32,000 nucleotides of DNA. Origin: Photorhabdus kayaii. Its GTDB lineage: Bacteria; Pseudomonadota; Gammaproteobacteria; Enterobacterales; Enterobacteriaceae. Made by a program: the position numbers. Positions 30,001 to 32,000 of the stretch are shown here, one piece after another. Each line of letters opens with the position of its first letter. Within the stretch, counting starts at the first letter, position 1. Location: contig NZ_JAJAFZ010000037.1 of assembly GCF_025384895.1 (NCBI RefSeq), positions 17,206 to 49,205 of the forward strand. The letters are read 5' to 3'.

Positions 30001-32000
30001 GAAGAGATTGGAATAATGGGATTACCTGTATTCTATGTTTTATCTAAAACCTCACCTCAAACTCAGTCACCATTGTTTGAGGTGGAAACGAAAGCATTTT
30101 ATCCTCAATTGAAGGAAGGGCAGCGTTTAGCTTTCAAATTACGCGTTAACCCAACAATCTGTATTACTGATCCTTCTGGAAAACGTCAGCGTCATGATGT
30201 TTTGATGCATGCTAAGTTTAAGGCAAAACAGCAAGGTGAAACGGAACAGGGGAAAATAAGAGTGATGATGGAGAATGCTGCCCGTAATTGGCTGTTAAAT
30301 CATCGTCGTATGCAGCAGTGGGGTATTCAGTTTGACGATTTACTGGATATTGAAGGTTATACTCAGCATCGAAGTGTAAAAAAGCAGGGGCAAAAAATAC
30401 AATTTTCCAGTGTTGATTTTCAAGGGCTTCTGACGATTACCAACGGTGAGCTATATTTGGAACAGTATGCAAAAGGCTTTGGTCGCGCTAAAGCGATGGG
30501 ATGTGGATTGATGTTAATTAGAACAGTATAATGGCATTGATGTCATTTAAATTTATTTTTGTTGAAGATCGTAATGCAGTATTCTTTGTTGTATGAAGAT
30601 ATTGATGTTAAAGGTAGCAAATTCGCTGTTGTTAGGCGTTCGTGTTATGTTTCAAAAGCACGGTAAAAAGTGATATTGCTAACTAATATCATCCTGTAGA
30701 GTAAGGCGTGGTCGTTACTCTCGGAAATATTGATAAAATAATTACCGTGTTCCTCACCTCTGTGGGGATAAACCCGAATTTTGGTATACATTTGCACAGG
30801 GAAAAATATGTTTCCTGTGTTTAATGGGATAAACCGCTATAATTAGTGGTAGGATATCGTGTTAGTGAGTGTTCCTGGTCATTACCGGGGTAAACCAAAC
30901 TCGATAAATCTCGTCAAAGAGAGAATTTAAGTGTTCCCTGTATTTACGGGGATAAACCGCGGCATGAGTGATGCTTTACTATGTTCACTAAATGTTCCCT
31001 GTAATTACGGGGATGGACCTAGCAGTGCTCCAAATAGTTATATAGCTAAGGATGAGTTCCCTGTATTGTACTCACGGGGATAAACCGTACGAGAATGACA
31101 CTGATCATTGGCTTCCTTGGTGTTCCCTACCTCTCTGGGGATAAACCGGACAGTAACAGTGACATAGTCGGTAGTCATTGGTGTTCCTTGTGTCCACGGG
31201 GGTGAACCGAACTGATACTGTTGTGCTTTGGATTTGGAAGCGTGTTCCCTGTACTAACGGGGATAAACCGAACAGTTAGCGTTTGAGCTGGCAGAGATGG
31301 ACTTGTTCCCCGTTTCTACGGGGGTAAACCGCTAAATACAGAACTATCTCCATCTGTTGCAATTTGATCCCTGTAATCTACGGGGATCAACCGTCATCCG
31401 GAAAGGTCATTGACATAAAGGGTCAGAGTTCCTTGACTTGATGGGGATAAACCAGATTCAGGTTTCATGATGATAGTTGAAGTAGAAATGTTCCCCGTTT
31501 TTACGGGGAAAGAGCAATTCGCTGCCACCTTGACCACAATTTTCAGGCCGATGATAAATCTGCGGTTCGGGCATATCGATACCGGGCAGTATTCGCTCGG
31601 TGATTTGACAGCGCTTTTTTCGGTATTAAGGTCAACGGCTTATCGAATTTTTTTACGTAAGAGAATGGCTCAGGATAACTAACGGAAATTTGTAATGAAG
31701 AAAAAGCGACTAAGAAAATTTCAGAAAGAACTTGAGACGTTGGGGTTAATTGAAAATGATCCAGATGTGGTCGGTTATGTGCTGTTTAACACGCGTAATC
31801 GCCGATTTGTGATACTGGATAAATATGAATTGGGGAGGGTGACTTACGCCGATGATATTGAAGAAGCTTATTTAGCAATGTCACGATTTGCCGCATTAAT
31901 GGATATTGATTCTTTGCCGGAGCCAGACAAATTCGATATTGTTGTTATCCCTGTTATTGATAACCCTTTATTTGGGTTAACGCCTAAAAAAACAGATTAA

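Follow-up and report, generated by a model that had tools for sequence, protein, structure and literature searches.

A non-adapting type I-E CRISPR array of Photorhabdus that looks like a fixed set of working guide RNAs

The closest described analogues of the locus we discuss here, a type I-E CRISPR system of Photorhabdus kayaii, are CreA/CreR and the other regulatory mini-arrays of type I systems (CreTA, Li et al.; 10.1101/2023.03.10.532045; 10.1101/2023.03.03.530964; PMC9458426; PMC8501985). A mini-array of this kind has one spacer and one or two repeats, which are degenerate, diverge from each other and adjoin the cas genes, and it stands beside a normal adapting array with cas1/cas2. Its guide aims at the cas or toxin promoter of the same locus. 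The useful information in the guide lies in the ~10-15 nt proximal to the protospacer-adjacent motif (PAM), a mismatch at each sixth position is tolerated, and Cascade binds and represses without cleavage. Canonical type I-E systems, those of the E. coli K-12 type and as found in Shewanella, Salinivibrio and Xenorhabdus, have the gene order cas3-cse1-cse2-cas7-cas5-cas6e and arrays in which spacers of 32-33 nt alternate with 29-nt repeats, each made up of a stem of 6-7 bp, a tetraloop and an 8-nt handle, AU(A/G)AACCG.

The locus lies in a stretch of 32,000 nt (hereafter the window; positions 17,206 to 49,205 of contig NZ_JAJAFZ010000037.1, assembly GCF_025384895.1). It has the canonical interference genes in the canonical order and, at 30747-31516 on the plus strand, 13 type I-E repeats of ~29 nt with 12 spacers of 32-33 nt; as in the mini-arrays, the repeats are degenerate, mutually divergent and adjoin the cas genes. 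Judged by its evolution in 15 Photorhabdus species, this array gives the impression of hard-wired guide RNAs that still work, and not of a fossil.

Constraint on seeds, handles and hairpins

In a MAFFT alignment of the leader end and the array from 15 species (the window and 14 others), the array is orthologous unit by unit, spacers included. To obtain a neutral yardstick, the same species pairs were also compared at the four-fold degenerate sites of their cas genes, and the rates given below are relative to these sites. Pooled over 14 spacers, the rates at spacer positions 1-5 are 0.29, 0.27, 0.58, 0.26 and 0.15, and those at positions 7-11 are 0.24, 0.18, 0.36, 0.26 and 0.57, while positions 6 and 12 change at 1.13 and 1.07. 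The paired seed as a whole (1-5 and 7-11) thus stands at 0.31 (bootstrap confidence interval, CI, 0.19-0.46), positions 6 and 12 together at 1.10 (CI 0.89-1.32) and positions 17-32 at 0.96 (CI 0.83-1.09). Constraint is weak at positions 13-17, with about 0.6 at 13-14 and 0.7-1.4 from 15 onward, and two spacers, S5 and S6, are conserved to positions 17-19. Over all spacer positions, about 30-35% differ between the deep clades and the window.

In type I-E Cascade, each sixth base of the CRISPR RNA (crRNA) is flipped out and unpaired, and the seed consists of positions 1-5 and 7-8 onward (PMC5904413). Of the 66 pairs of positions that can be drawn from the first 12, {6, 12} alone gives a contrast as large as the one observed, and 13 of the 14 spacers show it individually. 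It is replicated in three clades, the window's own included (seed 0.28, 0.26 and 0.40 against 1.03, 0.93 and 1.55 at the flipped positions). Counted on the tree, there are 59 events in 140 seed columns and 45 in the 28 columns at positions 6/12 (binomial p=1.5e-10), or 0.81 and 3.11 events per unit of tree length, compared with 2.99 at four-fold sites. Spacers with a slowly changing seed also tend to have a slowly changing 5' handle of their own (Spearman 0.68, p=0.008); with the downstream stem the correlation is weaker (0.40, p=0.15).

A footprint whose sequence is specific to each unit, which sets in where handle and spacer meet, leaves positions 6 and 12 free and dwindles after about position 14 is what would be expected as the trace of selection for target recognition by Cascade. 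We can conceive of no coding, structural or mutational cause for it. The footprint strongly suggests that mature crRNAs are made from the array, and they appear to be used by Cascade for seed-based target recognition.

The repeats tell a parallel story. The relative rate is 0.65 in the 5' tail, 0.42 in the 5' arm of the stem, 1.25 in the loop, 0.38 in the 3' arm and 0.44 in the handle; within the window's own clade the stem stands at 0.25, the loop at 0.92 and the handle at 0.31. Parsimony events per unit of tree length amount to 0.55-0.71 at the stem base, 1.6-2.1 at the stem top, 1.37 in the handle and 3.44 in the loop. Hence change in the stems and 5' handles is 2-4 times slower than at neutral sites, and the loops evolve neutrally. 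Given the neutral loops and a nearly neutral leader (0.81 overall, and ~0.4 in the last ~20 nt before the first repeat), there is no general deficit of change in the region, and it is the hairpin and the handle that are under purifying selection. An earlier examination of the window alone, hereafter the sequence-only reading, had proposed that the hairpins are selected while the loops drift, and in this it was right. Its further idea, that selection acts on structure and not on sequence, holds for the first half only, since hardly any change is seen at T5, C6, C7, G19-G21 and T23; constraint is looser in the upper stem (positions 9-11 and 16-18).

RNA folding confirms the hairpin count of that reading, which had been at least ten: a canonical hairpin of 6-7 bp with a ~4-nt loop is the minimum-energy or centroid structure in 10 of the 13 repeats (R1-R6, R9, R10, R11 and R13). 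R8 and R12 fold no better than shuffled sequences (z +0.48 and -0.01). The reading had named R2 and R12 as weak; this is correct for R12, whereas R2 forms a 6-bp hairpin and the second weak repeat is R8.

The double changes it cited are real (G-C to A-U in R1 and R7, U-A to C-G in R1, U:G to G-C in R3), and the A-U of R7 stands where the nearest relative, the fetched locus L001, has G-C. To judge their weight, we counted pairs in the loop-normalised 29-mers of the 13 window repeats, with shuffled and slid partners as controls. Of the stem cells 95.6% are paired, against 90.4% in shuffles (0/500 reach the observed value) and 50-64% with slid partners; changes on both sides occur in 4 cells (0/500 shuffles) belonging to 3 pairs (7/500). 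The pairing is therefore beyond chance, although double changes within one array are few. The sequence-only reading had also proposed a statistical covariation test, and we carried one out as a parsimony count on the cas-gene tree of the 15 species, again with slid partners as controls. On this tree 52 single and 9 double stem changes keep a standard pair and 31 break pairing. The 9 same-branch double changes that keep pairing exceed the 1-7 (mean 2.3) of the slid controls. Single substitutions that preserve pairing we do not accept as evidence: slid partners give similar fractions, because many of these changes are C/U opposite G and are neutral to structure by composition. Thus the covariation is real but modest, and the contrast in rate between stem and loop is the stronger evidence.

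Origin and anatomy of the locus

Cas6e is found as an identical protein in 7 NCBI assemblies and is 85-96% identical in 14 named Photorhabdus species, the 96% cluster being labelled P. laumondii. In all 14 other species the operon lacks cas1/cas2 and is followed, at equal offset, by 11-13 detectable degenerate repeats. The consensus ancestral array has 16 repeats (A1-A16) and 15 spacers, of which the window has lost S4, S9 and S15; its R4, R8 and R13 are hybrids of A4/A5, A9/A10 and A15/A16, respectively. Differences among species consist of unit losses through repeat-repeat recombination, point changes and insertions of ~125-nt repeat elements. A lineage-specific spacer gain was found in none of the 15 species, the leader end included. 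With no species-specific spacer, no acquisition has taken place since the common ancestor, that is, over a synonymous divergence (dS) of up to about 0.5-0.7.

The outgroups, the nearest relatives outside Photorhabdus, have a Cas6e that is 50-63% identical and come from Shewanella, Salinivibrio, an Oleiphilaceae metagenome-assembled genome, a Logan contig and Xenorhabdus vietnamensis. All of them carry cas1 and cas2 after cas6e, and their arrays are homogeneous, with 9-142 identical copies of a repeat such as GTGTTCCCCGTGCCCACGGGGATGAACCG. It follows that both the diverged repeats and the missing adaptation module are derived in the Photorhabdus lineage, and cas1-cas2 were lost before Photorhabdus diversified. 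Neither the window nor any of 20 Photorhabdus loci (+/-10 kb) yielded remnants in a tblastn search with Cas1 and Cas2 of Shewanella, the nearest canonical relative; the positive control, L019, was detected. The long period without adaptation that the sequence-only reading had supposed is thus borne out by the very comparison with related strains that it proposed: cas1/cas2 are absent, and the same array with the same spacers and no gain is present in 15 species. Its opinion that the array is not dead is likewise in agreement with the state of the six interference genes.

These genes lie on the plus strand. cas3 (23141-25858) encodes an HD nuclease and helicase of 905 aa (Pfam Cas3_HD 1.4e-39, Cas3-like_C_2 2.6e-35, ResIII and Helicase_C; ratio of nonsynonymous to synonymous divergence, dN/dS, 0.12-0.21). 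It is followed by the five effector genes, all present and in canonical order: cse1/cas8e (25873-27477; 534 aa; CRISPR_Cse1 1.8e-117), intact in 15 species; cse2/cas11 (27477-28058; 193 aa; CRISPR_Cse2 5e-22; dN/dS 0.15-0.20); cas7 (28079-29113; 344 aa; Cas_CT1975 1.5e-102; 0.08-0.15); cas5e (29124-29870; 248 aa; Cas_Cas5d 3.5e-51; 0.14-0.19); and cas6e (29857-30531; 224 aa; CRISPR_assoc 4.6e-49), the repeat-cleaving endoribonuclease. Aligned to E. coli CasE, Cas6e has YTSHQLLWKLF opposite LYQLHQGLWHLF, the segment that bears the catalytic His, and retains the G-rich loop GFGRAKAMGCGL. All six genes are full length, each giving a single tblastn alignment in every fetched locus that holds it; cas3 was judged in 13 other species, as the L013 locus is cut off upstream of cse1. 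An apparent internal stop in cse1 of L011 was rejected, as it is the natural stop placed two codons early. Against the window, the concatenated genes have a dN/dS of 0.12-0.19 and the single genes, cas3 among them, values of 0.07-0.21, at dS of 0.10-0.71. The six interference genes are under purifying selection.

Between the stop of cas6e and R1 lies the AT-rich leader of 215 nt (30532-30746, plus strand), where cas1/cas2 are missing; no strong match to a sigma-70 promoter was found inside it. The array beyond has a repeat spacing of 61-62 nt, the exceptions being R6, in whose loop 5 nt are inserted, and R11, whose loop is longer by one base. Counting confirms that all 13 repeats are mutually distinct, as the sequence-only reading had stated, and their mean column identity is 82%. 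That reading was accurate on the handles too, the exact ATAAACCG occurring in R2, R4, R6, R7 and R9 and each variant that it quoted for other repeats being correct. Tandem Repeats Finder reported no repeats over 29000-32000, because they are too diverged and interspersed, and Rfam gave no match at the gathering threshold in the whole window.

The units, all on the plus strand, differ considerably in their state. R1 (A1, 30747-30775), with the stem CCTCAC/GTGGGG and the handle ATAAACCC, forms a canonical hairpin of -9.2 kcal/mol and shows two ancient double compensations, L009 and L011 carrying CCTCGC/GCGGGG instead. Its spacer S1 (30776-30807) has a seed rate of 0.81, a weak constraint genus-wide. 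R2 (A2, 30808-30836; 5-nt loop, -5.0 kcal/mol) precedes S2 (30837-30868; seed 0.46). R3 (A3, 30869-30897; CCTGGT/ACCGGG, handle GTAAACCA) has a canonical hairpin of -8.6 kcal/mol and owes its G-C pair to a double change relative to distant species. S3 (30898-30930; seed 0.19) conserves AACTC.ATAAA.CT, varying at position 6 (G/A/T) and position 12 (T/C). The hybrid R4 (30931-30959) is canonical at -9.8 kcal/mol; A4, A5 and S4 are all kept in L007, L009, L011 and L012. S5 (30960-30991), conserved to position 19, has a seed rate of 0.16, and the handle upstream of it has a rate of 0.00. R5 (A6, 30992-31020; handle ATGGACCT, canonical hairpin -9.7 kcal/mol) is followed by S6 (31021-31053; seed 0.37), and R6 (A7, 31054-31087), 34 nt long, keeps its stem under a 9-nt loop (-8.9 kcal/mol). 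The loop of A7 differs in length between species, so that the repeat measures 28-48 nt.

S7 (31088-31119) and S8 (31149-31180) have the same seed rate, 0.47. Between them R7 (A8, 31120-31148) has a weakened stem, CCCTA/TGGGG, with 4-5 canonical pairs only and a non-canonical minimum-energy structure, where L001 has the perfect stem CCCTGC/GCGGGG. The hybrid R8 (31181-31209; handle GTGAACCG) forms a weak hairpin with two G:U pairs. S10 (31210-31241) reads AACTGATACTG.TGT and has a seed rate of 0.26; R9 (A11, 31242-31270; canonical, -10.0 kcal/mol) carries the handle ATAAACCG, invariant in the 15 species (0.00). In S11 (31271-31302; AACAG.TAGCG.) all 10 of the 10 paired seed positions are unchanged across the 15 species, and the variable ones are position 6 (T/C) and position 12 (T/A/G/C). 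The same is true of the ten paired positions of S12 (31332-31363; CTAAA.ACAGA.), which varies at position 6 (T/G/A) and position 12 (A/G) and is preceded by the canonical R10 (A12, 31303-31331; -11.4 kcal/mol).

R11 (A13, 31364-31393; 30 nt, handle ATCAACCG) folds into an extended hairpin of 12 bp (-16.6 kcal/mol, z -5.6), since handle and 5' tail are both variant here, ATCAA and TTGAT, and pair with each other. Members of the window's clade have this handle variant in common, but only some of them have the tail variant (L002-L004 and L006 differ). The extended fold would sequester the handle of the downstream crRNA of S13 (31394-31425), a poorly conserved spacer (seed 0.63, handle 1.35) that is likely decaying. 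R12 (A14, 31426-31454) has a weak stem and a non-canonical fold. S14 (31455-31487; GATTC.GGTTT.) has a seed rate of only 0.08, with variation at position 6 (A/G/T) and position 12 (C/T/G). R13 (31488-31516) is a strong stem-loop (-13.4 kcal/mol) without a 5' handle, in whose place an insertion junction is found; the degenerate terminal tail of the ancestor, GGGGACA.G.TG, is kept in L001, L002 and L004. To sum up the state of the weaker units, the hairpins of R7, R8 and R12 are weakened, and the spacers that look decayed are S1 and S13 in the window and S9 in the species that still have it.

Several insertions touch the array. R13 is split by an insertion of ~1.27 kb, which contains an open reading frame (ORF) of 101 aa (31695-32000) and, beyond the window, a gene for a MazE-family antitoxin. 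The stem-loop of R13, CTCCCCGTTTTTACGGGGA, is duplicated at both ends of the insertion, its second copy lying ~1.27 kb downstream in sister strains (L055:12783; L056/L057/L059/L060:12908). L003, L005 and L006 share the junction (GGGGAAAG.GCA...) with the window, and L001, L002 and L004 lack it, a distribution that departs from the cas-gene tree and therefore points to lateral spread or to repeated loss between the duplicated hairpins. Elements of ~125 nt resembling enterobacterial repetitive intergenic consensus sequences or miniature inverted-repeat transposable elements (TATACCCAATAGATTTC...GAAGGATGAAGGGTAT) are inserted in P. heterorhabditis and P. asymbiotica, namely in the leader of L007 (about 10870-11000) and, in L011, in spacer S6 and inside repeat A10; in P. 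asymbiotica one of them splits a repeat.

Two genes directly upstream of cas3, which keep their synteny in all sister strains, encode a RibD_C-domain protein (20414-21025) and a Fic/DOC-domain protein of 454 aa (21255-22619). The start of the window (209-6371) holds miaE, mutS, an nlpD-like gene (M23/LysM) and a gene for an rpoS-like sigma factor; in enterobacteria the interval between mutS and rpoS is recognised as a hotspot of variable DNA. On the minus strand at 7915-12617 there are three tandem paralogues of ~375 aa with DUF346 and FG-GAP-like repeats (7915-9045, 9706-10821 and 11478-12617), adjoined by a gene for a TonB-dependent receptor (14111-16693).

Binding, interference or decay

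The explanation we favour, with a probability of roughly 0.6, is that this is a vertically inherited Photorhabdus type I-E locus which lost cas1-cas2 before the genus diversified and which is still in use, most likely for binding or regulation. The array would be transcribed, probably together with the cas operon, Cas6e would cut at the base of each surviving hairpin, and the crRNAs would load into Cascade, which would use a PAM and a seed of 11-14 nt to recognise an unchanging set of DNA targets conserved in the genus. The selected activity would most likely be stable binding, that is, transcriptional control of resident genes or elements in the manner of CreA/CreR guides, Cas3 cleavage being less likely. 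Binding seems preferable to cleavage because no constraint is seen beyond about position 14-19, while in E. coli a 5-bp seed with an AAG PAM suffices for Cascade binding and >18 bp are needed for interference (PMC5904413). Further, guides from degenerate repeats are able to repress promoters with partial complementarity (10.1101/2023.03.10.532045; 10.1101/2023.03.03.530964). It is from the neutral PAM-distal halves and from this analogy with CreA/CreR and other mini-arrays that we infer binding or regulation rather than Cas3 cleavage.

Several points weigh against a binding function. The same E. coli work found seed-only Cascade binding to be transcriptionally inert (PMC5904413). A function confined to binding would have no need of cas3, yet this gene is maintained by purifying selection, and in two clades positions 18-32 are slightly constrained (0.81-0.87). 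Searches for targets, which did not extend to whole Photorhabdus genomes, came back empty or at chance level. Window-wide, PAM plus seed sites number 1 against 1.5 expected. A CreR-like site upstream of cas3 (22500-23200) was not found, even when only positions 1-5 and 7-8 were considered and any PAM was allowed. Each species' spacers searched against its own 20-kb locus give about 9 seed matches where about 8 are expected, none of them syntenic. A blastn search with the array (word size 11, E<=10) against 50,697 phage and 72,556 plasmid records gave no target, only repeat-to-repeat matches to other I-E arrays and marginal matches. The conserved 19-mer of S5 has 4 matches in IMG/VR, none with a PAM, and with a PAM 4 matches in JGI metagenomes, which lie in DNA of 47-63% GC, show no extension and are at chance level. 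For the shorter seeds, with 14 specified bases, over 1000 matches in viral contigs would be expected from chance.

Among possible self-targets in the window there is no exact seed match; with a PAM and one mismatch allowed there are 4 seed matches, about 1.4 being expected. The best candidate was the pairing of S8 with the start of cse2 (27477-27511), where an ATG PAM coincides with the start codon (27477 ATG + GACAGTAAgAGTGA, GACAGTAAgAGTGAaAT...). It matches at 21/32 positions in the window and 18/32 in L001, and was rejected because elsewhere the match drops to 9-17/32, always with a mismatch at position 9; although it falls inside the operon that encodes Cascade, it is probably due to chance. 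In the P. temperata/viridis clade (L008:9916(-), L013:5694(-)) the S1 seed (GAATT.TGGTA) is complementary to the S13-A14 junction, with a GAG PAM, and this match too is probably a chance one.

Some of these points would suit another explanation better, namely a frozen immune memory, in which interference by Cascade and Cas3 is still aimed at a few long-lived, conserved mobile elements (phages, plasmids, integrative and conjugative elements). Seeds would then be kept since seed mismatches abolish interference while distal ones are tolerated, so that the same seed signature would arise; an intact cas3, under purifying selection in 13 other species (dN/dS 0.12-0.21), would be accounted for, and so would the longer conservation of S5 and S6 and the slightly sub-neutral distal positions of two clades. 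However, the PAM-distal half overall changes at the four-fold-site rate, and given the divergence of spacers in the deep clades these halves cannot all pair with one target; interference in E. coli needs >18 bp (PMC5904413). Nor were protospacers met with in the phage, plasmid, viral and metagenome collections (the latter two scanned with S5), and mobile-element targets conserved genus-wide at dS of about 0.6 would be unusual. We therefore consider this explanation unlikely, though with cas3 retained it stays in play as a rival.

The other two rivals are of a different order. A dead array in neutral decay, its hairpins owed to composition, shared ancestry or palindrome-templated repair and its conservation to a low local mutation rate or to alignment, could appeal to the slid partners, which give pairing-preserving single changes almost as often as the true ones, to the small number of double changes (just 9) and to S1, S9, S13, R7, R8 and R12, which do look decayed. 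Against it, loops, positions 6/12, positions 17-32 and most of the leader are neutral within the same 800 nt, which leaves no regional rate deficit; conserved seed columns are flanked by invariant columns, which excludes alignment error as their cause; the 6-nt periodicity holds in three clades; and the cas genes are strongly constrained. We regard decay as very improbable. More improbable still, in our opinion, is an overlapping feature unrelated to Cascade, such as small ORFs, a small RNA or protein-binding sites. Several short ORFs do cross the array, and in sister strains the gene caller annotates a 46-aa minus-strand ORF within it. Yet the period of conservation is 6 nt and not 3 nt, constraint restarts at each handle-spacer boundary for only the first ~11-14 nt with a different sequence in every unit, seed conservation co-varies with the handle of the same unit, and the Rfam search was empty.

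Returning to continued use for binding or regulation, it is tempting to go one step further and to see a complete type I-E system domesticated into a multiplexed RNA-guided DNA-binding regulator with about ten fixed crRNAs and PAM-proximal seeds of 11-14 nt. This extension is tentative, and we would sooner doubt it than rely on it. If true, Cascade (possibly with Cas3 in a non-canonical role) would be directed to conserved sites of the chromosome or of resident elements, a natural multi-guide CRISPR-interference regulon older than the radiation of the genus and possibly tied to its life cycle as insect pathogen and nematode symbiont.

Comparison with described systems

The debate on whether CRISPR has stable non-immune functions usually turns on single degenerate guides or on chance self-matches. 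In the present case it is an entire non-renewable array that bears the footprint of Cascade recognition, and it does so in three clades that span a synonymous divergence of about 0.6. The comparison offers direct evidence that an old array can be functional without adapting, and it shows which nucleotides of a guide matter and which guides remain in use; the per-position rates amount to an in-vivo, evolution-derived estimate of type I-E seed length. The question can be tested in a genetically tractable bacterium. Since standard CRISPR finders missed the array, similar systems may be overlooked elsewhere.

By gene content the effector module is that of type I-E, and the hairpin and loop typical of I-E repeats are found in 10 of the 13 repeats, for which cleavage by Cas6e is predicted; such a substrate would be cut at the 3' base of the stem, leaving a handle of 8 nt. 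The seed with its flipped sixth bases is likewise the rule of the subtype (PMC5904413). What sets the locus apart from canonical systems is the absence of an adaptation module, the heterogeneity of the repeats, all of which differ, and an array content that is fixed genus-wide instead of turning over. It does not resemble a fossil or orphan array either, as stems, handles and seeds change 2-4 times more slowly than four-fold sites and the six cas genes are intact.

Loss of cas1/cas2 with repurposing of the effector for DNA binding is familiar from CRISPR-associated transposons (type I-F3, I-B and V-K) and from type IV systems, some of which have atypical repeats and mismatch-tolerant 'homing' guides. 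In those derivatives, however, the nuclease has also been lost or inactivated and there is a link to transposition genes or DinG, whereas here cas3 is retained under selection; among the annotated genes of the locus no transposition genes accompany the CRISPR system.

Regulation of endogenous genes by a non-adapting system has been proposed for the type I-E of E. coli on purely predictive grounds (PMC6413058), but there cas1/cas2 and homogeneous repeats are kept. In the sister genus, whose members are likewise nematode symbionts that infect insects, some strains of Xenorhabdus griffiniae have a second I-E gene set without cas1/cas2, next to eda (PMC11566119), but another part of the genome carries a complete I-E set, and the arrays are conventional and variable. 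Purifying selection specific to seeds was shown in neither study. The Xenorhabdus Cas6e that we retrieved is only about 56% identical, and the X. vietnamensis locus that we fetched has cas1/cas2. A genome study of P. laumondii TT01 by CRISPRFinder lists six arrays, all with a different repeat of 28 nt, and mentions 'two CRISPR/Cas systems' (PMC6267812). Our full-text search of the literature returned no description of the present array, nor of seed-limited selection on a whole array.

We come back, then, to the regulatory mini-arrays. The likeness lies in the divergent repeats beside the cas genes and in a constraint that is PAM-proximal only, 0.31 at positions 1-5 and 7-11 as against 1.10 at 6 and 12 and 0.96 at 17-32, which corresponds to where CreA/CreR guides hold their information; the binding without cleavage described for them would be shared if the use we infer is correct. 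The differences are that the present array counts 13 repeats and 12 spacers (ancestrally 16 and 15) instead of a single guide, that no canonical I-E array and no cas1/cas2 lie within +/-10 kb, and that no target was found in the cas promoter region or the searched collections, whereas CreA/CreR guides act on a promoter of their own locus. In our opinion, the array would thus resemble the regulatory mini-arrays in function while standing outside that class as it is now defined.

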